A stretch of DNA of 32,000 nucleotides from Nitrososphaerota archaeon (GCA_028866895.1 JAGWHF010000002.1:71309-103308); one strand, 5' to 3'. Positions 8,599 through 32,000 are shown, counted from the first letter of the stretch. Notes: generated by a model not told the origin, from the sequence alone. Numbers and translations are program-made.

Positions 8599-9237
8599 AT
8601 GTACGCACTCGAGAACAACTTGAGGATGTACTACATAGCGCCCATCATGTTGGTCGCTGTCCTACTGTTTTTCCTCCTCCACACCTCCGAGGGAACGCTC
8701 GAGTTTGCGGCCGACTCGATAGGCAGGGTGGATGCCTCTGGCATTCAAGTCTCATTCCTCATATGCAATCCTTCGCCAATGCCAATCACTCTTGAGGGCG
8801 CACGCGAAAGTCTTGATGGTCCCAAAGGGGCATACGGCACCCTCTCCATGCCAGCGCTGACCGTGCCAGCAGTCTCCTCGGCAACCCTTGAGGGCTGGGC
8901 GGACTTTGCCTCCCCTGCAGCCATGAAGGGGTTCATAGACTCGATACTTTCCAACCGGACATCCACCAACGCTACGCTCGCTGTCAGCGAGAAGCTTCTG
9001 GGGCTGGTTCCTTATTCCTTCAAAAGCGAATCCCGCCAGTCCCTTGCCGGACTGTTCACTGGCAGCGTCAAATGGGACTGCAAGGACATTCCAAACCACG
9101 GCCTCCAGATACGGCAGCGCCTAGAGGTTGCAGACGCGCAGATCTCAGCGGCGCACCTACTCTATCTTGGCGGTACTGCAACCGAGGGGCAGTCGGGCCC
9201 TGTTGCTGGCCTGCGGTCCCCCCAGGAGGGAGGCTGA
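8599..9237 (+). CDS. Hypothetical N-terminally membrane-anchored protein, 212 aa (possibly LEA14/WHy-like beta-sandwich)
   Basis: An N-terminal TM segment (YYIAPIMLVAVLLFFLL) is present. IQVSFLICNPSPMPITLEG resembles the NPN-strand motif of LEA_2 domains, but weakly. The start could instead be ATG 8626. Confidence 0.5.
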   Translation: MYALENNLRMYYIAPIMLVAVLLFFLLHTSEGTLEFAADSIGRVDASGIQVSFLICNPSPMPITLEGARESLDGPKGAYGTLSMPALTVPAVSSATLEGWADFASPAAMKGFIDSILSNRTSTNATLAVSEKLLGLVPYSFKSESRQSLAGLFTGSVKWDCKDIPNHGLQIRQRLEVADAQISAAHLLYLGGTATEGQSGPVAGLRSPQEGG

Positions 9238-11228: not shown

Positions 11229-14200
11229 CTAGTGCTTTGTGGTTAGCCTGTCGTGAATCTGGGCGAGAATTAGTTCTGCCTTGTCCTTGTTCTCAAAGGC
11301 CTCCTCCTTTTCGTCCATTATGGCGTCAATCTCGTAGCTCTTGTCGACAAGCACGTTTGCCACATGATCATCAAGGGTGCCGTTTCCTATCAGATAATAG
11401 GCAAACACTGTGTTTTTTTGTCCTATTCTGTGGCAGTTGTGGACGGATGCTTGCCCAACCACAAACGAATGGTCATCTTCCACCGTGAGATCGTACACTG
11501 TTGCCCTGTCATGGTACGTTCTAACGTCTTTTACAGGCTGGTAGCAGTATTCGTTGTCTTTTACATCATGTTTTTTATCGCCTGGATCCCCGTTGATTGC
11601 ATATCCGCCAATCCACTGGCCGCCTTCTTTTCCATTTTCGATTTCCATCAGTGAGGGCATAAAACCGCATTTGAGTGCAATTAGATTAATTTGTGAGGCT
11701 AATTGTCTACTATCAGTAACCCATTCTTGCCGGCTGTCTCTAAGATTATCTTCCCCTTTACAATATGCGCCAAAAAATATTTTTAATTTTTGAGCGGGAA
11801 GATCAAGTATGAATTCCGGAATCCTTTTTTCATGAGCATTTCCTCCAAACCATTTGCTAAACCATGTGGCTAGTCCTGCTGAGTATGCTCTCAGTTCTGC
11901 ATTGCCTTCATTACATTCGATGGAATAGGTCGCCCCAAGTTTTCCCAGTCTCTCTCCTAATTTTTCCAATACTGGCATTTCTCTTACGTGTCCTGGCAAA
12001 GAAATGAAACTGCCTTTGCCATCTGTCTTGCCTGAAAACCCTTCTGCAGTGTACAAGCCAAAGAGGCAAAGCAAATCATCGTCGAGCTCGGTTCTTCTCT
12101 GAATTTGGATATACCTTCCATCAGTTAAGACGGATCCAAGCTGGTTTTTTCGTGTTGGATTGTGAAAACACTCTTCTGGCATGTCGACGGTTGTTTTATC
12201 TAAAATTTTTGTTGGTACCGGTGTCAAAACAAAGTCGCCAGGCAATATTTCATCTGCATTTATCCATTTTGGTTTTGCCTGATCTTGTTTGAGAACCAGT
12301 ATCCTATGATCATGTGTACAGATTAATGGCTTGCTATATCTGTGGTAGGTAATTTCTGTCATTAAACCTCGGTGTTCTCTTCTTTTTATGTTTTGAACTT
12401 TCTTCCAGTTGCCTAGATGTGTTAAAACAAGGTCGTTTAATTTTACATTCTCAATCTCGATCAAGCCTTTGTTCTGTACATTTACCAGTTGTCCTTGCTT
12501 GATGCACCTGTCTTCGGCTTGTCTGTGAATTGCTGGACTCCAGTCAAGCTCTGCAAATATTACGTATCTTGCAACGGACAAATTAATTCCAACGTTTCCT
12601 GCGCGGAGCCCAGCTATCATCAGCTTGGTCTGCCCATTTTGGAACCGCTCGATGTTGTTCTGCCTCTCCTTGTCTGACTGGCCTCCGATAATTGAGGATG
12701 GGGAAAATTCCTGCAGGCTCTTGTGTAAAAGGGCATGGATTGCCTTGTGGTGGCAGAATACGACCACGCTTTCCTCAATCTCCATGATATTTTTTACAAA
12801 CTCTATGACATGGGGAAGCTTGGCGGCGCCTGCGGCCTGGCGCTCGCTCTGAATTGCTCTCTTGTACGACGAGAACTTGTCAAATGCCGAGGTCGCGTTC
12901 TTTTGCTCCTCTTCCAACCTCTTCCAGATCTTGTCAAGCTCTGAATGATAGTAATTGATATCTGAATCAATAAACTCCTTGTACCTTACCTTTTCTTTTA
13001 GTTCTTTTAGGACATCTGACTTTTTGCGTCGAAGCATGACGTGCTTTCGGAGCTCGTCGCCAAGCGAGGCCCTCTTGTTCTCAAGAACTATCGCCTTTCC
13101 TTTCTCGTTGACATAGCAAAAGTATTCGCAAAACTCTTCAAAACTTCCAAGAAGGCCAGGTCTTAGTATGTCCACTATCGGCCAAATCTCAGAGCCCCTG
13201 TTGTAAATTGGAGTGCCGGAAAGTCCTATTCTGTATTTTACCGATTCTAGGGCAGCGAGTTTCTTTACTGCGGAGTACTTTTTTGTCGATTTTGAGCGGA
13301 GATGTTGTACCTCGTCGCATACGATTGTCCTGATTCCAAGCTTGGAGAGGTCGCCAAGTCTCTTGTACAAAAGGTCGTAATTTATTATGTACACGTCATG
13401 CCTTTCTATCTCCTGCGACTTGCCTGTCCTGATAAGAATTGATGACGGAAATTGGGCTTCTAAAATTCGTCCATTCTTGCTCCTTTTCTTGAGGAATTTC
13501 TGTGCCTCTCGTTCCCAGTTGGTCAGAGTTACAAGTGGTGCGACAATTAGTGCGGGGAAAGTTTGTTTTTCAGTGGCAAGATATGCCAAGGTCATTATTG
13601 TGTTATGCGTTATGATGCCGTTTGCGATATAATTGTGGGTTTCGGGAACGGAAAGATCGTACACATATCCGGCATGGTGCTTTACCTTCAGGGATTTTAC
13701 CGGACACCAGTTGATTGAATCCGAAGAAATTCCGTGTAACCCCCATGGGATCTCATGCATGTGAAGCGGTTCCATCTTGGCGCGACCTGAGGCTGAAATC
13801 TCTTTGCACATCCATTGTGATTGATCGTGAGGAGTGAAAAGTCTGAGTGAACGCATTGGCATCCCATCCTCTGTTATCTTCTGGGTGGTTTCCTGCAACG
13901 GAAAATGATCAATGTTTTTACCGTGATTCTCTGCTGCCAGTAGGTCAAGCGCCTTTTGCTTATGTATTGCAAGTGGTCTGAACTCGCTGTGGAATCTCGA
14001 CACCGAGTTGGCGTCAATTGTGCATACATAGCCTTTTCGGCGTATCTTGGAGCCGTTTGTTGCAAACTTTCTTGCTTCTCTGATTCTGAGCCAAACGCCA
14101 AAATGTAATAAAATCTCGCGCAGTGACAGGGCAATGGATTTTGATGCTGTTGTGAACTCGCACTGGCTCTTTCGTACGTGACCTCCAGCATCAAACAAGG

Positions 14201-15296
14201 CTTGTACGAATGCTTTCTGTGTTTCTATTGGTGCCTCAAGTATTGCGCGCTGGATGTCCTTGTCCTTTGACTTTTTGGTCCACTCGTGGCGGAATTTTGA
14301 AAATTCCTTGTATGTCCCGCTTGTGCCACTGACAAAGTTCGTCGGATTATTTGCGCGAGGCCCTGGATTGGGAATTTCATTTCCGTTCTGTTTGGCAAGT
14401 TTCTGAACTCGAGTCAGTGCACTGTAATCAGAATTTGAAAATGCTGAACGTGCATATTTTTTTTCCTCGTGATATTCATTTTCTTCTGCCACTTGCCATG
14501 CCATCAATTCTGCGGCTTCTGGTGAGAGTATGCTCTTACCTTGGTGCAATGTCTTTGCGGGGATCGCAACCATGTCATTCATGGTGAGCCTGCCTGCCAT
14601 CTTCCAACCTTCTGGAGTGCAAAGCCTGTGACGCTTGGTGCATTCTATCGAGGCACCGTCGGCAAATGTGATCTTCATTATGTCCTCGTCAATCTTTTGT
14701 CTGAATACGCGCGTGACTTCTTTAGTCACAACCCTCCTTCCGTTAAATGACTGGACCTTGATTGGTTTTTTCAGGCTTGCCCACTCCTCATGGTTGTCCT
14801 TCTCCGTCACCTCGCCCTTGTCCCAGATTTCCTTAATTGTAACTTGACCATTTAGTGTGCTTATCAAAGTGTCTGGTAAAACGCACTTTCCAAGGCCCAT
14901 TTCGTCTGCAAGCAGCGCATTGCCCGATGACTTGAGCAGAAAGTCGAGCCCTTCCCTCTGGAAGTTGAGCAACGTGCCCCTGAACTGGCCTCCGGGAGTC
15001 GCCTTCCTGAGCTTTTCTATCTTGGTCCACCTTCTCTTGGGCACCTTCATATGCCTGGTCTTACGCTGCCATATGTTCCTCGACTTTATCTCAAGGGGAT
15101 ATGTCTCCATGATCCACTTTATCTTCTCGACGTTCTGTACAGTGTCAGGAACCATCGCCTCCTCTGGGCCGTCGCCGTACCATGCCTGTGGTATGACGCG
15201 GGCGACCATGCTTACCGCCCTTGAGCCTGTCAACTTCCATGTCCAGTTTTTAGAGTACGTATCCAAGACGTACTCTAGGGTTCCAAATTCTTTCAT
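11229..15296 (-). CDS. SNF2/Rad54-family helicase precursor containing two inteins (570-aa extein)
   Basis: SNF2 motifs present: I LLADEMGLGK|T (split), Ia LIVAPLVTLTNWERE, II VCDEVQHL, III LSGTPIYN, V GLRAGNVGINL, VI QAEDR|CHRIGQ (split). It is a single uninterrupted 1355-aa ORF. Confidence 0.95.
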   Translation of the reverse strand: MKEFGTLEYVLDTYSKNWTWKLTGSRAVSMVARVIPQAWYGDGPEEAMVPDTVQNVEKIKWIMETYPLEIKSRNIWQRKTRHMKVPKRRWTKIEKLRKATPGGQFRGTLLNFQREGLDFLLKSSGNALLADEMGLGKCVLPDTLISTLNGQVTIKEIWDKGEVTEKDNHEEWASLKKPIKVQSFNGRRVVTKEVTRVFRQKIDEDIMKITFADGASIECTKRHRLCTPEGWKMAGRLTMNDMVAIPAKTLHQGKSILSPEAAELMAWQVAEENEYHEEKKYARSAFSNSDYSALTRVQKLAKQNGNEIPNPGPRANNPTNFVSGTSGTYKEFSKFRHEWTKKSKDKDIQRAILEAPIETQKAFVQALFDAGGHVRKSQCEFTTASKSIALSLREILLHFGVWLRIREARKFATNGSKIRRKGYVCTIDANSVSRFHSEFRPLAIHKQKALDLLAAENHGKNIDHFPLQETTQKITEDGMPMRSLRLFTPHDQSQWMCKEISASGRAKMEPLHMHEIPWGLHGISSDSINWCPVKSLKVKHHAGYVYDLSVPETHNYIANGIITHNTIMTLAYLATEKQTFPALIVAPLVTLTNWEREAQKFLKKRSKNGRILEAQFPSSILIRTGKSQEIERHDVYIINYDLLYKRLGDLSKLGIRTIVCDEVQHLRSKSTKKYSAVKKLAALESVKYRIGLSGTPIYNRGSEIWPIVDILRPGLLGSFEEFCEYFCYVNEKGKAIVLENKRASLGDELRKHVMLRRKKSDVLKELKEKVRYKEFIDSDINYYHSELDKIWKRLEEEQKNATSAFDKFSSYKRAIQSERQAAGAAKLPHVIEFVKNIMEIEESVVVFCHHKAIHALLHKSLQEFSPSSIIGGQSDKERQNNIERFQNGQTKLMIAGLRAGNVGINLSVARYVIFAELDWSPAIHRQAEDRCIKQGQLVNVQNKGLIEIENVKLNDLVLTHLGNWKKVQNIKRREHRGLMTEITYHRYSKPLICTHDHRILVLKQDQAKPKWINADEILPGDFVLTPVPTKILDKTTVDMPEECFHNPTRKNQLGSVLTDGRYIQIQRRTELDDDLLCLFGLYTAEGFSGKTDGKGSFISLPGHVREMPVLEKLGERLGKLGATYSIECNEGNAELRAYSAGLATWFSKWFGGNAHEKRIPEFILDLPAQKLKIFFGAYCKGEDNLRDSRQEWVTDSRQLASQINLIALKCGFMPSLMEIENGKEGGQWIGGYAINGDPGDKKHDVKDNEYCYQPVKDVRTYHDRATVYDLTVEDDHSFVVGQASVHNCHRIGQKNTVFAYYLIGNGTLDDHVANVLVDKSYEIDAIMDEKEEAFENKDKAELILAQIHDRLTTKH
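11436..12506 (-). mobile_element. Intein 2 (357 aa, residues 931-1287) with LAGLIDADG endonuclease domain, inserted in SNF2 motif VI
   Basis: It begins at Cys1 (CIKQGQLVNV). Block B is THDH. LAGLIDADG motifs are LFGLYTAEGF and FFGAYCKGED. The C-terminus is VYDLTVEDDHSFVVGQASVHN with +1 Cys. Junction codons were verified on the nucleotide sequence. Confidence 0.9.
13602..14885 (-). mobile_element. Intein 1 (428 aa, residues 138-565) with LAGLIDADG-type endonuclease domain, inserted in the SNF2 P-loop (GLGK|T)
   Basis: It begins at Cys1 (CVLPDTLISTLNG). Block B is TKRH. The endonuclease motif LFDAGGHV is clear, while the first motif is degenerate. The C-terminus is VYDLSVPETHNYIANGIITHN with +1 Thr. 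Junction codons were verified. Confidence 0.9.
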
Positions 15297-24758: not shown

Positions 24759-25217
24759 CTACTTGCCGGGTATCGGGAGTATCTTGCTTGAGGGCAGGTT
24801 GCTCTGCTCCTGTTCTGGCACGGTAAAATTCTCAAGCTCCACCGTAAGCTCGGTACTTGCCTCGAACTTGTCGCCAAGCTGCACTGCAAGGTCAGCTATC
24901 TCCCCTGGCTGATAGATCTCGCTTGAGCCTTTGAGGAAGATCCTGCTTCCCTTCTCTGCGGGCTCACCACCAAACTTGTCCTTTAGGAACTTTGTAATCT
25001 TGCTCACCTCGTCGGCCGATATCTGGTTGTGGTAGAAGACTATGCCGTTCACGGATGCATAGTCCCATGGGGTTCCATTTCTGTAGCAAAAGACTCCAAA
25101 GTGCGTCCCTGCGTCGTCCTTGGTGCACTTGATCTCCCAGATGAGGACCTTTTTTGGATCATACTGGGCTTTGCGCATGTCGTCCACTGTCAACTTCCAG
25201 TATCGTAGCCTGCTCAT
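24759..25217 (-). CDS. Hypothetical protein, 152 aa
   Basis: Clean ATG ORF with protein-like composition. It is divergent from the HEAT-repeat gene, sharing a 41-bp promoter region. No motif recognised. Confidence 0.6.
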   Translation of the reverse strand: MSRLRYWKLTVDDMRKAQYDPKKVLIWEIKCTKDDAGTHFGVFCYRNGTPWDYASVNGIVFYHNQISADEVSKITKFLKDKFGGEPAEKGSRIFLKGSSEIYQPGEIADLAVQLGDKFEASTELTVELENFTVPEQEQSNLPSSKILPIPGK

Positions 25218-25228
25218 ACTAGTAGTTG

Positions 25229-25253
25229 AAATAAATATGCGATTATAAAATCG
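25229..25253. promoter_or_regulatory. Back-to-back TATA-like boxes in a 41-bp divergent intergenic region
   Basis: GAAATAAATATGCGATTATAAAATCG. The first box is centred about 25 nt upstream of the plus-strand ATG 25259. The second, read on the minus strand, is centred about 28 nt upstream of ATG 25217. Confidence 0.4.
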
Positions 25254-25258
25254 TGTGC

Positions 25259-25747
25259 ATGGAAATCGTTCCCAAGGGGCGTCTTGAGACTTTGTCGGAG
25301 ATGGAGGAGAGGTATGAGAAAAAGGACAAGGACTATTTTGTCAAGATGCTTGAAAGCGGGGATTTTGTGATAAGGTGCAGGGCTGTATGCATCCTAGTCG
25401 ACATGGGGGGAGAGGATGTAGTCCCCCACATAGCACGGGTACTAAAGAATGATGCCAACGAGCTTGTGCGCCACGAGGCGGCATTCTCTCTTGGGCAGAT
25501 GTGTCTTAGAAGCGGGATCAAGCCGCTTGAAGATGCCACTATGGGTGATCCGAGCCTCTTTGTTCGCCACGAGGCGGCAGTCGCGTTGGGCGTGATAGGT
25601 TCGCAGGATGCCAGGGAGACGCTGCAAAGGGCACTTGACGATTCTAGCGAGCAGGTGAGGGATTCAGCCGTCGTGGCTCTCTCGAACCTCAAGTTCATGG
25701 AACGCCTCTGCAAGAATGAGCGTTTTGCAAAGCTGACGGGAGGGTGA
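25259..25747 (+). CDS. Four-HEAT-repeat protein with two His-Glu motifs (half-size deoxyhypusine-hydroxylase-like)
   Basis: There are four PBS-lyase-type HEAT repeats. Repeats 2 and 3 read LVRHEAAFSLGQM and FVRHEAAVALGVIG, and repeat 4 reads VRDSAVVALSNL. The start is ATG 25259, or GTG 25253. Confidence 0.85.
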   Translation: MEIVPKGRLETLSEMEERYEKKDKDYFVKMLESGDFVIRCRAVCILVDMGGEDVVPHIARVLKNDANELVRHEAAFSLGQMCLRSGIKPLEDATMGDPSLFVRHEAAVALGVIGSQDARETLQRALDDSSEQVRDSAVVALSNLKFMERLCKNERFAKLTGG

Positions 25748-25755
25748 GGGAGAGG

Positions 25756-28206
25756 TCATGGCCTGCCGGTCATGCGGGTAATCTTTGAGATGCCGGAATC
25801 CTTGCTTACTTGGAATATGTTGTCTACGTATGTCTCAAGCTCCTTCTCGTGAGAGACCAGGATTATCTGCTCAGAATTCATCTCCATCAGAAGGGATTTT
25901 ACCTTCGCAAGCTGGGTCTTGCTGAAGCCATCTGTTGGCTCATCGAGGATGAGCAGGTTCGTATTCATTGTGGAGGATCCTCTCCTGATGAGCGAGTTTA
26001 ATGTCAACCGGTAGGCAAGGGCTATGCTGGTCTTTTCACCGCCGCTTAGAAACTCGACGTCCTGTTCGTACCCGTCCTGCTCTACAATGGGCGTGAAACT
26101 CTCGTCGATTCTTGACTCTTTTGTGGGATCATCGATAAGGATGGAGTACCAGTGCCTGTAAGCCTCGTTGAAATCCTGCTGGATTGCAAGCAGAACCTGC
26201 CTTTCTATCTGTTCCAATGTGGGTATGAAGAACTTGCTTAGCCATTCGTGGAAATTTGAGTATCTTCTGTACCACTTTTGCCAGTACAGTGCCTCCGCTA
26301 TACTGTTCTCATGTCCACTTTTCTTGTCCTCAAGTGAGGTCCTTGTCTGCTCCTGCCTTGCCAGGTCTTGTGAGGCTTCGCCCAGCATCCGCTGGCATGC
26401 AGCCTCTTCGCGTTCGAGGGATTCCGTCCTGGCCTCCAGACCTTCAAGCTGGCCAATCTCGCTCTTCATTTTTTGTATTTCATCGCAAAGCCTGCCCATC
26501 TCGAGGCGACTTGATTCGATCTCCATCTTGCGGCAGTCCATTGTCTGCGCAAGCTTTGCTTTCTGCACCTCCTTCTCCTTGATCCTATCGCATGCATTTT
26601 GGTACCTCAAAAGGGCCTCCTTGACTGTGGCAAGACGCTCAACGGGATCTTCCTTGCCGTCTCCTGGTCCTATCTCCTCCTCTAGGTTGATTGCCACCTC
26701 TTCAAGCCTTTCAAGTCCTATCCTTGCGGCCTGCATCTCAACCGCGTTTTCCGAGGCCTTCTTGAGGGCGGGGATGATCTTTCTTATCATGTCTCTCTCT
26801 AACTCCTTCTCTGAAATCCTGGCCTTTAGGGTGACCCGCCGTGATTGGAGGGATGATATCTCCTCTGATATTCCGCCTATCTTCGATGCAGCCTCTTCAA
26901 GCCTTGCCTCCCTGTCCCTCTCCACACGTTCCTTGTGTTCGTGGCTTATGTTGCTCTCGCAGACCGGGCACTTGGAGTCGAGGCTCCTTATCTGGCCGAG
27001 GTCTCTTGTGTACTCCTCTACGTTGGTCTCGTATTTGGTTAGAAGTTTGGAACATTCTACTATCTGTCCATCCGTACTTTCAAGCCCAGACTGCAGCGAC
27101 GCAATCTCGGCTAAGAGGCCGTCAAGGCAGGTCTCGAGATCGTCGGCGCCAGCCAGGGCATGCTGCCCAATCTCTCGTTCAAGAACTGCCGACTGTCTTG
27201 ACAGAACCTCGATCTTTGACGCAAGCTCATGCTTTGCCTTGTTCGACTCTGAAAATTCCTTGATTAGGCAGTTTACCCTCTCAAGATTTGTTGTTGCCGG
27301 CCTAGTGACCTCCTTTAGTGATGCTATCTCCTTCTCGGTACGACTAATCTCGGAAATTGCGTCCTCCAACTCTCTTGAGATCTTTGCTATCTCCATTTCC
27401 CTGTTTGATGCCTGTGCCTGCGCGTTTTTTATCTCGGCAGACAGCCTCACCGATTTCTCACGGTCCTTCCTTGCCTGCTCCACCTTCAGCCTTATTTCCG
27501 CTAACTGCCTTTCAAGACGCGCCTTCTCCTTTTCTAGCCGCCCTGTTATGATTGCGCAGTCCTCAAGCGACTTTTTGGTCCTTCCCAGCTCCTCCTCATG
27601 CCTTGGGAGGTCGTGGAACCTCTCGCCTAGGATGCCTGCCTGCTTGTCCAAAAACCTCCTGAAATTCTCAGAGTTCTCGATTGCAGTTTTATAGTCCTCC
27701 ACGCGGAACGCCTTCCGTATCGTCTCCAACCTCTTGGAAGGATCACGCAGGATCTCTTTCATCTCCTCCTGCGGCGTAAAGACTGCATAACGGAAGATCC
27801 TGCTCTCCGAGCGCGGATCCTCCGACTCGTTGAAGCGGAGTATCTGCAACACCCTCTGCTTCAGCTCGGAGGGCGAGAGCGGTTCAAGCACGTCGCCCAC
27901 CTTGAGGTATGATGATTTAGGATCCTGGCTCACAGACTCTCCCTTCCTCCTAAGCGTCCGCCGTATCTCACATTTCTGCCCGTTGGCCTCGAAGTTTAGC
28001 GTGACGACGCCTTCATTTGCCTTCTTTGAGAGAAGGGCCTCCGGCTTCTGTGATCCTAGCCCGAACAGAGCAAACTCTATACCCATGAGGACCGATGACT
28101 TTCCGGATCCTATGTCGCCCTCAAATAGGGTGATGCCACGGGGGAATTCTATCCTTTCCCTCTCATAACTCCTGATGTTTTCAAGTTCAATCGATTCGAG
28201 CAACAT
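25756..28206 (-). CDS. rad50: DNA double-strand break repair ATPase Rad50
   Basis: Walker A is GDIGSGKSS. A long coiled coil carries the CPVC zinc hook. The signature is LSGGEKTSIALAYRL and Walker B is LLILDEPTDGF. The start overlaps the mre11 stop by 20 nt. Confidence 0.95.
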   Translation of the reverse strand: MLLESIELENIRSYERERIEFPRGITLFEGDIGSGKSSVLMGIEFALFGLGSQKPEALLSKKANEGVVTLNFEANGQKCEIRRTLRRKGESVSQDPKSSYLKVGDVLEPLSPSELKQRVLQILRFNESEDPRSESRIFRYAVFTPQEEMKEILRDPSKRLETIRKAFRVEDYKTAIENSENFRRFLDKQAGILGERFHDLPRHEEELGRTKKSLEDCAIITGRLEKEKARLERQLAEIRLKVEQARKDREKSVRLSAEIKNAQAQASNREMEIAKISRELEDAISEISRTEKEIASLKEVTRPATTNLERVNCLIKEFSESNKAKHELASKIEVLSRQSAVLEREIGQHALAGADDLETCLDGLLAEIASLQSGLESTDGQIVECSKLLTKYETNVEEYTRDLGQIRSLDSKCPVCESNISHEHKERVERDREARLEEAASKIGGISEEISSLQSRRVTLKARISEKELERDMIRKIIPALKKASENAVEMQAARIGLERLEEVAINLEEEIGPGDGKEDPVERLATVKEALLRYQNACDRIKEKEVQKAKLAQTMDCRKMEIESSRLEMGRLCDEIQKMKSEIGQLEGLEARTESLEREEAACQRMLGEASQDLARQEQTRTSLEDKKSGHENSIAEALYWQKWYRRYSNFHEWLSKFFIPTLEQIERQVLLAIQQDFNEAYRHWYSILIDDPTKESRIDESFTPIVEQDGYEQDVEFLSGGEKTSIALAYRLTLNSLIRRGSSTMNTNLLILDEPTDGFSKTQLAKVKSLLMEMNSEQIILVSHEKELETYVDNIFQVSKDSGISKITRMTGRP

Positions 28207-29449
28207 CTCTAATTTTTAGTCCCGCTGTTCCAAGCATGTTTTCAATTATCCTGTTCTGGTAATCTGTTCTCTTCTCATTTTGCAGGATGGGCAGAATGGC
28301 TGCACTGAGCATCGCCCGTGCTGTATTGATGCCAGCATCCCCCATAAGCTCACGCTCATCCATCCTGACCTCGCCTATGTTTTCCCTAAACGCGTTGGTC
28401 TCAATCTCTGTCCTGTCCCTCCCGCCAGCAGGAGTGATGGCGTATTCCCTTGAGGTAAGCCTGCTCCTGTTGACCTTTATCTCCAGTGCCCCGTACAGGC
28501 CCTCCTTTGCCTTCGCGTACTCGATGTCGGTAGTCTTGCCTTCTGACAGTTCGCCGTGAATCTTAATTACTACAATCTTGTCCTTTGAATCAGACTGCCG
28601 CACCTTTTCGAGAAGTTCACTGTTCACGGTGCTTGCCCTCTTTCTTTCTGCGTCAATGTCTATGAGGGTGTATTCCGCGTTGGGCAGTGGGACGAATTCG
28701 ACGGTTAGACCATCCTGCCCGACCTCGACGAACACCATGCCCCTCTCCTGTCCTCTGGCATTCTCCTCCAAGTCGCTGTGGTAGCCGGCAAACAGCGTCC
28801 CGGGATATACCACGTTTGGATGGTCGGGATATCTTGCATGGTGATACTTGTGCATGTGTCCTCCCGCATAGTAGTCAAAGCCCCTTGGCAACGATGAAAG
28901 TGCCATAAAGTCAGTCTCAGGCCCTACCTCGGTCTTCATCTCGTCAATTCCTCCGTGGAACAAGAATATCTTAAAGCCGCCTTCACGCTCAAGCGCCGCC
29001 CTGTCCAGCTTCTCATAATAGACCGAATCCTTGCCAGCCTTGAGGCCGGGAAGTCCTGTTATCTTTGCACCTGTCTTTTTGTCAACAGTAAACTCGAGGG
29101 AAATCCTGTCGTCGCCCGTCTCCACTACATTGGTTACCTTGGTGAGGTATCTAGTTTCATTTAGAAGATCTATCACGGAATTTGAGACCGGGCTAAAGTC
29201 ATGACTGCCGTATACGGCGTAGACCGGGATCCCTGCCTCGTAGACCTGCCTGAATTTTGCAAAAGCGGCCTTTTGGACACGCATCTCGGGAATATTTACG
29301 TGGAACAGATCTCCTGCAATGAGGATGAAGTCCACCTTCCTGCGGATGCATTCGTCTATTGCGCGCTCGAAGACGGACCGCTCTGTTCTCTGAAGATTCT
29401 CGGACTTTTGAAACCCAAGGTGAATGTCAGACAAGTGCGCGAATTTCAT
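28187..29449 (-). CDS. mre11: DNA double-strand break repair nuclease Mre11
   Basis: Calcineurin-like phosphoesterase motifs are present: HLSDIHLG, GDLFH, GSHD, GGHMH. Confidence 0.95.
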   Translation of the reverse strand: MKFAHLSDIHLGFQKSENLQRTERSVFERAIDECIRRKVDFILIAGDLFHVNIPEMRVQKAAFAKFRQVYEAGIPVYAVYGSHDFSPVSNSVIDLLNETRYLTKVTNVVETGDDRISLEFTVDKKTGAKITGLPGLKAGKDSVYYEKLDRAALEREGGFKIFLFHGGIDEMKTEVGPETDFMALSSLPRGFDYYAGGHMHKYHHARYPDHPNVVYPGTLFAGYHSDLEENARGQERGMVFVEVGQDGLTVEFVPLPNAEYTLIDIDAERKRASTVNSELLEKVRQSDSKDKIVVIKIHGELSEGKTTDIEYAKAKEGLYGALEIKVNRSRLTSREYAITPAGGRDRTEIETNAFRENIGEVRMDERELMGDAGINTARAMLSAAILPILQNEKRTDYQNRIIENMLGTAGLKIRDVARID

Positions 29450-31012
29450 TTAAAACACCTTTGTCCTCGCAGCACGTTTTTCAGAGCCGTTGTTGCCTAC
29501 CATTTCCTCGAAGAGTGGTATCTTGATTGGGAGTGCGAACGGTACGAATATGCTCGAGATAATCCCCTCGCCCTTGTCAAGGCTCGCTATGTTCTTATCA
29601 TCTTCCGACAGGTCCTGGGACGCGCTCTCTATGATGGCATCCCTCTCCTGCTTCATCTCATTTCCAAGTATTATCTTTGTATTCATGTTCGCAAGGATGG
29701 TCCTTGGGATCACACTGGAAAGCTGAGTTATTGCAGTCAGGCCTACCTTGAACTTCCTGCCCTCCTTTGCTATGATGCTGTATATGTTGTCGTTCTTCGA
29801 AACTAGGACATCCTCCCCAATCACTCGCGGGGCCTCCTCTATGACGACGGTCACGACCGGCTTCCTTTCAAGCTGCCCCTTTTGCTTGTAGTCTTTGTAT
29901 CTCTCGAGCACCTTTGACGCTATTATGTTCCCCACGATTATTTCCGCCTCGTTGCCGAGCCTCGAGGTATCGAGAATAACCTTCTTGCCTGCCTCAAGGT
30001 CATTGACAATGTCATCCACCGTGGTAATCCCCTTTGTGGCAGCATCGAACACCTCGTTTTTGCATTCCACTTGGTTTTGTTCATTGAGATCAAGCCCGAG
30101 TATGATCCTCATCTTTCTCTTCACGACTGACATGGTAACTGCCGCATTCTCGGACGAGGCAAACTCCTCGGGTGATGTCATCATTATCTGTGATATCCAC
30201 GTATCCCTGTGCGTCCTGTAGGCTCCTCTGATTGCCTGGTACTGCGCATCGGAAAAGTCTATGATCCCTTCAAAGTGCTCAGGCCTTACAGAGCGGAGGT
30301 TTATGGTGAGCATATTCGTTCCGGGTGGCGGGCTTGCTGGGGTATAGTAGACAAGGTTCTCCCTTGATCTAGGATGGTCCTTCAGTCCAGGGCCATGCCT
30401 GCCGTAATACTCATCATGCGCATCAAGGACAAGTGCGCCGACCCTATTAGAATCAAGGGCATGCCACAAGATGGTCTTGACTAGATTGCTTTTTCCCCTT
30501 CCAGTTGTGGCTGGGATCAGGATATGGTGTGAGAACACGTCTTCGGCATTGAGCCAGACTTCAGCGTCCTTGATGACCTTGGTGCCACTCCTGATGTGAC
30601 CTACGAAAATCTGTTCGGTCGACCTCTTCAGAAATCTCAGGTCTTCGTTTTTAATGAATCTGAGTTTGTTGAAAAAGGAGGGAAGGGACTTTGGCAGTGT
30701 GACTTTGTTGTCCGTGCGGGAGACTCTGGCCAGGGGTTTTATTCTTGCTAGGACGTAATTGACAAATTCTGGCTCGTAAAACTCCGCATTTCCCACACCC
30801 TGCTCCAGGTTGACTCCAGACATCATTTGCTGCATCCTGTCTTGGATCTGGCTGCCGTACTCCAAGGCAAACACTTGGAGTATGAGATAAGATCCGTCCT
30901 CTTCCGATATCAACAGATCCCCGATCTCCAAATTTTTGCCAAATTTTTCCCTAATCACGATGTCGCCAAAACTTCCCCCGATTACCTGTCCCACAATGTC
31001 AATCTCGTCCAA
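29450..31012 (-). CDS. herA: HerA (FtsK/HerA-type) hexameric ATPase/helicase
   Basis: There is an N-terminal HAS-barrel-like region, the Walker A motif ATTGRGKSN, and a Walker B-like VVIEEA. The TTG start directly abuts the nurA stop (TAATTG). Confidence 0.92.
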
Positions 31013-32000
31013 TTAACTAGTCACCCAGTTGAGGTCATCATGGACGACGTTGGTGAGGGTATACTTTGAGAGGCGCTTCCACTGTGGGTCCCTCGATTTT
31101 TCAGCCATTATCATGCCGCGGTACATCTCAAGCTCATTTATTCTGACTTGGGCAAACCTATCCGCGTCGATTGATCCGTATGGGTATCCAAGCATGGAGA
31201 TGTCCTCGGCATTGACCGCCAGGCTGGCCAGCACGTTGTTCCGCTCATCCTCGCCCATGGCGTTGAACTGCTCAAGGAGGATCTCAAACCTAAACACGTG
31301 CCTTGATTTGGGGTGGAGCTTGCACACCACCATGAAGCCCCTGTCATCGGATGACACCTTCTCTGCTACAGGGATGTACCACCTTGGAAGATCCGTCCTC
31401 TCTGAAATCTCGGCAATCCTTGCCAGCAGGGGATCTCCAGATTGTGTGACAAGCCTGCTGGTCTTTGTCAGTCCGCAAACTATGACGCCTTTCTCCGTTG
31501 CAAGCTCATACAACCTGTTTGCGTATTTTACCTCGTTCTCAAAGCTTGTCTGAAGAGACCCGTCAATTACAATCACATCCCCGCTCGAAAGCTCGTTTTC
31601 GACAATCCTGCAGGCCATATTCCACTCGGCAAAGCGCCTTGAAAGGGAAACTAGTTTTGAGCCCTGCAGGATTGAAGAATATTCCACCTTGGATGTCAGG
31701 TCGGCAACATCTGGCAGGTATTCCAAGTCGCCGTCATCATAAGTGAAGAGGTTGGTGTTGTAGCTTATGCTCTGCCTCTCACCAACTTTCTTGATCTCGG
31801 ATACTACGTAGGAGAAAAATTCAATCCGGCGCTTGAGTTTTTGCGGCATTATTCGCTTTTTTCCGCGGAATATCGAGAAGTAGAGCCTATTTATCACAAT
31901 CATGTAATTGGGGGATTCCTCCAGTATGCCATCCCCACCGTCCACAAACGCGATCTTCTTTGGATTGATGGTACCACTTATCTCTATAAAATTCTCCGCC
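31013..32000 (-). CDS. nurA: NurA 5'-3' nuclease, 5' end cut by the window edge
   Basis: The reading frame stays open to the window end (...ENFIEISGTINPKKIAFVDGGDG...). IAFVDGG matches the first catalytic Asp motif region of NurA. It sits immediately upstream of herA. Confidence 0.8.
   Translation of the reverse strand, partial: AENFIEISGTINPKKIAFVDGGDGILEESPNYMIVINRLYFSIFRGKKRIMPQKLKRRIEFFSYVVSEIKKVGERQSISYNTNLFTYDDGDLEYLPDVADLTSKVEYSSILQGSKLVSLSRRFAEWNMACRIVENELSSGDVIVIDGSLQTSFENEVKYANRLYELATEKGVIVCGLTKTSRLVTQSGDPLLARIAEISERTDLPRWYIPVAEKVSSDDRGFMVVCKLHPKSRHVFRFEILLEQFNAMGEDERNNVLASLAVNAEDISMLGYPYGSIDADRFAQVRINELEMYRGMIMAEKSRDPQWKRLSKYTLTNVVHDDLNWVTS

Follow-up and report, generated by a model that had tools for sequence, protein, structure and literature searches.

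Introduction

The deoxyhypusine hydroxylase of eukaryotes (DOHH, also Lia1 or nero; EC 1.14.99.29; PDB 4D4Z) is a protein of eight HEAT_PBS-type repeats with four His-Glu motifs in a single chain. Researchers have assigned the iron ligands of the human enzyme to His56, His89 and Glu90 together with His207, His240 and Glu241, and substrate binding to Glu57/Glu208 and Gly63/Gly214 (PMC9117371). All archaea have deoxyhypusine synthase, no DOHH homologue has been identified in them, and some of them carry fully hydroxylated hypusine (PMC5178350 2016; PMC6105217 2018; PMC7773846 2020; PMC8153317 2021). In this study, we analyzed 32,000 nucleotides of a Nitrososphaerota archaeon (GCA_028866895.1, JAGWHF010000002.1:71309-103308), hereafter called the window, in which a gene at 25259..25747 on the + strand encodes a protein with HEAT_PBS-type repeats and two His-Glu motifs. 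A first-pass annotation, made from the sequence alone, had proposed it as a candidate archaeal hydroxylase of half the size of DOHH. On balance, and with moderate confidence, we favour the reading that it is a half-size HEAT_PBS member of the DOHH lineage that would act as a homodimeric DOHH-type hydroxylase.

The statement of the first-pass annotation that no DOHH has been assigned in archaea, although some carry the hydroxylated residue, agrees with the literature cited above. We found no paper describing a half-size DOHH-like family or an archaeal DOHH. A subset of the family is named 'deoxyhypusine monooxygenase' by the automatic annotation of JGI and the proteins are named as HEAT repeat proteins at NCBI, so the idea of a DOHH pre-exists as an unexamined database label.

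The gene and its His-Glu motifs

The coding sequence extends from the ATG at 25259 to the TGA stop at 25745-25747 and encodes 162 aa, which is supported by the list of open reading frames (ORFs), the homologues and the codon bias. The ORF had been described as 164 aa long; it is indeed present, but that length is reached only from a GTG at 25253. Because the roughly 120 close homologues are all about 162 aa long and begin at the position of the ATG, we favour the start at 25259. The nearest homologues belong to Nitrosotalea and other Nitrosopumilales (67-89% identity), indicating that the window comes from an ammonia-oxidizing, Nitrosotalea-like thaumarchaeon, and 162-aa homologues are present in Nitrosotalea, Nitrosopumilus, Nitrosotenuis and Nitrosopelagicus. 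Most differences from the homologues are at the third codon position, with 25, 13 and 97 at positions 1, 2 and 3 in one example; this excess indicates that the reading frame is under purifying selection and that the gene is real. The gene is conserved over the Nitrosopumilales and in more distant relatives.

Pfam recognizes HEAT_2 (2.5e-22) and HEAT_PBS (6.4e-15) in the protein, and the helix pattern carried over from the modelled homologue P0121, which is described below, shows four helical hairpins preceded by an N-terminal helix. Both results bear out the four HEAT repeats of the first-pass annotation, and the His-Glu pairs lie in repeats 2 and 3 as it had stated. All four repeats are on the + strand. 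Repeat 1 (25325..25411, about aa 23-51) is without a His-Glu pair, corresponds to the R.RA...L..GG repeat of DOHH and aligns with human residues 24-50. Repeat 2 (25418..25507, about aa 54-83) contains LVRHEAAFSLGQM, with H72-E73 at nt 25472-25477 and G79 at nt 25493-25495, and repeat 3 (25514..25603, about aa 86-115) contains FVRHEAAVALGVIG, with H104-E105 at nt 25568-25573. Repeat 4 (25610..25708, about aa 118-150; QVRDSAVVALSNL) is again without His-Glu and aligns with residues 110-134 and 262-277 of human DOHH. The chain ends in the tail FAKLTGG (25724..25744, + strand, aa 156-162), a family-specific Gly-Gly end.

Conservation was assessed in a family alignment of 24 members with 41-85% identity and 162-171 aa, comprising Nitrosopumilales and distant metagenomic relatives. 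R71-H72-E73-A74, L78-G79-Q80 and V102-R103-H104-E105 are invariant in 24/24, so that both His-Glu pairs are unchanged down to 41% identity. Repeat 3 is also invariant at A107, G111 and G114, and repeat 4 at V133, S136, A137, L141 and N143. Two features are peculiar to the family: the end F-x-[KR]-[LMK]-T-G-G, found at the very C terminus of 23 of the 24 members, and an N-terminal helix with an EME motif, which is absent from DOHH. A C-terminal Gly-Gly is a hallmark of ubiquitin-like, SAMP and ThiS-MoaD proteins.

The background set was drawn from an exhaustive search of 1.8 billion representatives and comprised the 137 generic long HEAT proteins with the highest scores. A His-Glu pair at the two positions after the V-R of the repeat occurs in 8 of 1913 generic HEAT_PBS-type repeats (0.4%), and two adjacent repeats with His-Glu occur in 1 of the 137 proteins. 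The pattern, invariant in the family against this background, is therefore more than chance.

Relationship to DOHH and to generic HEAT_PBS proteins

BLASTP aligned the protein with both halves of human DOHH: the N half matched at 32% identity over 114 aa (E 7e-13), the C half at 35% over 111 aa (E 1e-10). In this register, H72E73 corresponds to H56E57 and H207E208, H104E105 to H89E90 and H240E241, and G79 to G63 and G214. The first-pass annotation had claimed colinearity with one half of DOHH, including repeats 1 and 4, and the alignment is in register with either half. The human sequence used for the alignment matches residues 1-289 of PDB 4d4z_A exactly, so the human motifs and residue numbers given by the first-pass annotation (H56E57, H89E90, H207E208 and H240E241) are correct, with roles as published (PMC9117371). 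None of the equivalents of the iron ligands (H72, H104 and E105) or of the substrate binders (E73 and G79) is missing, and all of them are invariant. The types of motif also follow the order of DOHH, HEAAFSLGQ in repeat 2 resembling HExAYxLGQ and VRHEAAxALGxIG in repeat 3 resembling VRHEAAEALGxI. In both proteins the His-Glu pairs stand at the start of the second helix in repeats 2 and 3 of a four-repeat unit, 32 residues apart in the window protein and 33 in human DOHH.

Human DOHH is the best natural match in the PDB, with 72.5 bits for the single sequence and 127.6 bits (E 3e-36) for the family profile, and the next natural matches are YibA (45.5), MTH187 (25) and CpcE (24). Synthetic consensus alphaReps and a designed trimer (6veh is among the designs) score comparably to human DOHH. 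Because the exhaustive search was dominated by long multi-repeat HEAT proteins with summed scores, single-domain scoring was used instead. The top single-domain scores with the family profile are of DOHH type (62-99 bits: Galdieria 99, the archaeal four-His-Glu proteins described below 76-96, human 65), and the 150 best generic HEAT proteins in the 1.8-billion-protein library score 30-83 bits. With hhalign, the family matches a profile of 12 eukaryotic DOHHs at a probability of 99.7 (E 4.7e-27).

There are clear differences between the window protein and DOHH as well. The archaeal chain of 162 aa contains four repeats with two His-Glu motifs, whereas DOHH has eight and four in one chain, and for this reason we do not class it as a DOHH proper. 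It is without the inter-domain linker of DOHH that bears the conserved DPAPP segment, and it has the EME helix and the FxKLTGG tail, both of which DOHH is without.

Generic HEAT_PBS proteins (CpcE, CpcF and NblB, E. coli YibA, MTH187 and alphaRep) have the same 31-residue consensus ..VR..AA.ALG.IG and a solenoid fold, and the protein could accordingly be a non-catalytic member of this kind, an interaction scaffold or PBS-lyase-like adaptor whose likeness to DOHH reflects the shared repeat type only. We consider this very unlikely. It has in its favour that Pfam gives only HEAT_2 and HEAT_PBS, that NCBI names the protein 'HEAT repeat domain-containing protein', and that synthetic alphaRep consensus proteins rank above DOHH in sequence searches. 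The profile comparison points the same way: a generic HEAT_PBS control profile, made of segments of the 137 best generic proteins, scores 194 in hhalign (132 columns, 26% identity, similarity 0.33), against 171 and 161 for the N and C halves of DOHH (109 columns, 32-34% identity, similarity 0.44-0.49). The profile-profile search proposed by the first-pass annotation therefore gave the DOHH signal, but its overall score does not separate DOHH from the parent repeat family; the DOHH-specific signal appears to come from the motifs, from an architecture fixed at four repeats and from the higher identity. However, human DOHH itself matches only HEAT_2 and HEAT_PBS, as Pfam is without a DOHH-specific family, so the Pfam match neither supports nor refutes a relationship to DOHH. 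Generic HEAT_PBS proteins also differ in having variable surface residues after the VR and a continuous superhelix whose repeats are numerous or vary in number, and we know of no metal site in them. Two adjacent invariant His-Glu pairs, at a background of about 0.4% per repeat, are not what a scaffold would lead one to expect. An identity as PBS-lyase or NblB was rejected, as the NCBIfam scores are far under the cut-offs (NblB 35.7 vs 300, CpcE 23.8 vs 330, CpcF 16.4 vs 220) and the host is a thaumarchaeon, that is, an archaeon without phycobilisomes.

Fused relatives and the probable working form

The exhaustive search also found P0121, a protein of 363 aa that consists of two tandem copies of the window-type unit and has four His-Glu motifs. 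Its copies are 60% identical to the window protein with the same motifs, and the second ends in ...RLIGG; it differs in being a fusion, in its signal-like N terminus and in its hypusine-gene context. P0121 aligns end to end with the DOHH of Galdieria (32% over 262 aa, E 5e-32) with all four His-Glu motifs aligned, and when it is used as the query, eukaryotic DOHHs are its best full-length relatives. A single-sequence AlphaFold2 (AF2) model of P0121 (pLDDT 70, pTM 0.67) matches 4d4z_A globally (TMq 0.62, TMt 0.77 over 306 columns), and its comparison with continuous solenoids gave TM 0.24-0.48 at a root-mean-square deviation of 12-16 Å. Because the global match is to 4d4z_A and none is to continuous solenoids, the halves of P0121 are predicted to lie face to face as in DOHH. 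A scaffold would not readily account for this modelled DOHH-like dyad, nor for a family that always has exactly four repeats and is repeatedly met as a fused pair.

A second set of fused proteins, retrieved with the P0121 query as well, occurs in metagenome-assembled genomes (MAGs) of DPANN archaea of the Nanoarchaeota/Woesearchaeota type. These proteins (P0303, P0314, P0319 of a 'Nanoarchaeota archaeon', P0321, P0324, P0326 and P0359; loci L086, L088 and L089) are about 280 aa long, and each chain comprises eight HEAT repeats with four His-Glu motifs. Though archaeal, they resemble DOHH; their motifs are of the LVRHEAAFALGEM type, and each half gives 76-96 bits with the thaumarchaeal profile; like DOHH, they are without the TGG tail. 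Their NCBI name is only 'HEAT repeat domain-containing protein', and the genes around them encode PCNA, TatD and a NOG1-like GTPase, with no deoxyhypusine synthase gene (dhs) adjoining. Judged from their sequences, such full-length DOHH-like proteins are at odds with the published absence of an archaeal DOHH homologue.

The N and C halves are 37% identical within eukaryotes, 43% within the 280-aa DPANN proteins and 58% within P0121, which exceeds the identity between lineages: the thaumarchaeal unit shares 32-34% identity with each of the eukaryotic halves, and the DPANN halves are only about 30% identical to it. Since the halves are more alike within than between lineages, at least three independent tandem fusions of the four-HEAT unit are suggested. 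A unit that is fused in tandem so recurrently would be expected to work as a pair, and a four-His-Glu site would need a homodimer of the window protein, because its chain has only two such motifs.

Linkage of a fused relative to the hypusine pathway

P0121 is encoded on L083, an 18-kb contig of a DPANN archaeon (Logan SRR21363124). Directly upstream of it and on the same strand are genes for deoxyhypusine synthase, a pyridoxal-phosphate-dependent decarboxylase, N-carbamoylputrescine amidase and agmatine deiminase. The deoxyhypusine synthase shares 65-77% identity with its counterparts in Woesearchaeota and Nanoarchaeota. Two IF5A-like genes, both with hypusine-loop motifs, flank the cluster; in the first, LKAGKHGGPK aligns with the hypusine loop of Methanocaldococcus jannaschii aIF5A, and in the second, AKTGKQGHIKINLEG aligns with SKTGKHGHAKVHLVG of eIF5A.

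The dhs gene, the polyamine genes, P0121 and both IF5A-like genes form a compact 'hypusine island' at 3857-10902 of L083. The product of the first IF5A-like gene is a paralogue that has the N domain only, extended at its N terminus by a long acidic stretch, and an AGKHGG loop, and the second, with a KTGKQGH loop, is cut by the contig end. A gene like that for gamma-butyrobetaine dioxygenase adjoins the island. From this gene content, the island may serve specifically to modify IF5A-like substrates of a non-canonical kind.

Proposed function

We propose that the window protein is probably a half-size variant of DOHH that works like DOHH as a homodimer. Each four-HEAT subunit would bind one iron through His72 of repeat 2 and His104 and Glu105 of repeat 3 on its concave face. 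Two subunits, related by a two-fold axis, would face each other with their concave sides, like the N and C halves of eukaryotic DOHH, and would thereby form a di-iron centre with four His-Glu motifs that activates O2. The deoxyhypusine side chain of aIF5A would be held by Glu73 and Gly79, which correspond to human E57/E208 and G63/G214, and would then be hydroxylated to hypusine. For the window protein, we infer homodimerization, iron binding, O2 chemistry and the aIF5A substrate by analogy with DOHH. The hosts are aerobic ammonia oxidizers, which fits an O2-dependent enzyme. The proposal of a candidate hydroxylase in the first-pass annotation is supported, having come through most of the in-silico tests by which it might have been refuted.

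Apart from the profile scores discussed above, several observations weigh against this proposal. The window protein concatenated head to tail with itself modelled poorly (pLDDT 56, pTM 0.37) and gave TM 0.36-0.41 with no DOHH-like global match; as the Foldseek matches of this low-confidence model are uninformative, we do not count it as evidence against a dimer. The C-terminal TGG tail is without a counterpart in DOHH. P0121 begins with a segment like a signal peptide, which is odd for a cytoplasmic enzyme, and a TATA-like element and an AGGA resembling a ribosome-binding site lie 5' of its ATG, so that it has a promoter-like region of its own. In a tblastn search of the window and about 85 thaumarchaeal loci, neither dhs nor aIF5A was found near the HEAT gene. 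The link to the hypusine pathway that the first-pass annotation had sought thus holds for the fused P0121, beside dhs and the IF5A-like genes, and not for the window and these loci; outside L083 nothing of the kind was found, and the dhs linkage is known from that single contig. Woesearchaeal relatives, which are close DPANN, keep only the pair of dhs and decarboxylase, and a metagenome scan with P0121 gave no second fused copy and only two short fragments of thaumarchaeal type. No report on hypusine versus deoxyhypusine in Thaumarchaeota was found in the literature. Thermoproteus and Pyrodictium are strict anaerobes. Hypusine has been reported in both (PMC5178350), so an O2-dependent enzyme is not a general archaeal solution.

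The signal-peptide-like segment of P0121 (L083 9001-9156) is hydrophobic and is followed by a Ser/Thr/Pro-rich stretch. The next in-frame starts, TTG at 9154 and ATG at 9157, would cut the conserved N-terminal region. Judging from this N terminus, P0121 might conceivably be exported or anchored in the membrane.

Some of these observations would also suit a HEAT protein of the DOHH lineage that binds metal but has another role, such as a mono- or di-iron oxygenase with a different amine or protein as its substrate, or a protein of iron handling or sensing. One subunit alone offers a 2-His-1-carboxylate set (H72, H104 and E105), the hypusine-pathway genes in Thaumarchaeota are not linked to the HEAT gene, and one distant member has a NifU_N gene directly upstream and a ferritin gene nearby. 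The TGG tail and the EME motif, both specific to the family and absent from DOHH, and the signal-like N terminus of P0121 can be read in the same way. Nevertheless, we regard such a role as rather unlikely: besides the metal ligands, the equivalents of the substrate-binding residues of DOHH, E73 and G79 (the latter in LGQ), are invariant, the sole informative neighbourhood (L083) holds dhs, polyamine genes and two IF5A-like genes, and DOHH is the only characterized protein with such an arrangement of motifs.

If the homodimeric DOHH-type hydroxylase is nevertheless the right reading, a wider picture can be drawn, which we offer tentatively and with more doubt than conviction. The thaumarchaeal protein would be a living unfused homodimeric DOHH, hypusine would be made in an O2-dependent way in ammonia oxidizers and, by fused forms, in some DPANN archaea, and the eukaryotic enzyme would be one of several independent fusions. 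The Gly-Gly tail would be an added functional element, for example a plug of the active site or for the binding of a partner.

The family offers a concrete, cloneable candidate in cultivable aerobic archaea (Nitrosopumilus, Nitrososphaera and Nitrosotalea). If it is active, O2-dependent hypusine hydroxylation would not be a eukaryotic invention, and the four-HEAT homodimer would be a minimal DOHH, useful for the mechanism and structure of the unusually stable peroxo-di-iron centre. It would also document how an oxygenase site can arise where two copies of a binding, non-enzymatic repeat module meet. The gap of the 'missing archaeal DOHH' would be closed in part, leaving the hypusine of anaerobic Crenarchaeota unexplained.

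Surroundings of the gene

Just 5' of the ATG, an AT-rich stretch (AAATAAATAT...TTATAAAA) is read directly at 25229..25250 on the + strand; by its composition and position, it may be a TATA-like promoter element serving a transcript with a short leader or none. The HEAT gene stands alone and is divergent from a 152-aa ORF (24759-25217, - strand, without a Pfam family), beyond which lie tatC and purP. This pairing, with a 152-156 aa ORF followed by tatC, tatA and purP, recurs in Nitrosotalea loci and in a relative whose HEAT protein has only 55% identity (L001, L002 and L087); synteny is maintained in Nitrosotalea, and its upstream part reaches as far as this relative. On the other side, a complete archaeal DNA-end-resection operon (25756-31945, - strand) with rad50 including its zinc hook, mre11, herA and a 310-aa ORF in the position of nurA converges with the HEAT gene, and the stop of rad50 is 9 nt from that of the HEAT gene.

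Among distant members of the family, one HEAT gene directly follows a NifU_N gene and is two genes from a ferritin gene (L092 2700-4698), a setting related to iron, and another has an aIF2-beta-like (eIF-5_eIF-2B) gene two genes downstream (L093 8001-9537), a setting related to translation; each is a single case.

The G+C content of the window is 50.7%, against 39% in the syntenic locus of Nitrosotalea devanaterra and 37% in that of a Nitrosopumilus MAG (L044 and L076). The closest loci are those of 'Thaumarchaeota archaeon REEA' MAGs, and the source is a high-GC, Nitrosotalea-like lineage. Elsewhere in the window, a gene for a 1355-aa SNF2-family helicase (11229-15296, - strand) is split by an intein with a LAGLIDADG homing-endonuclease domain.

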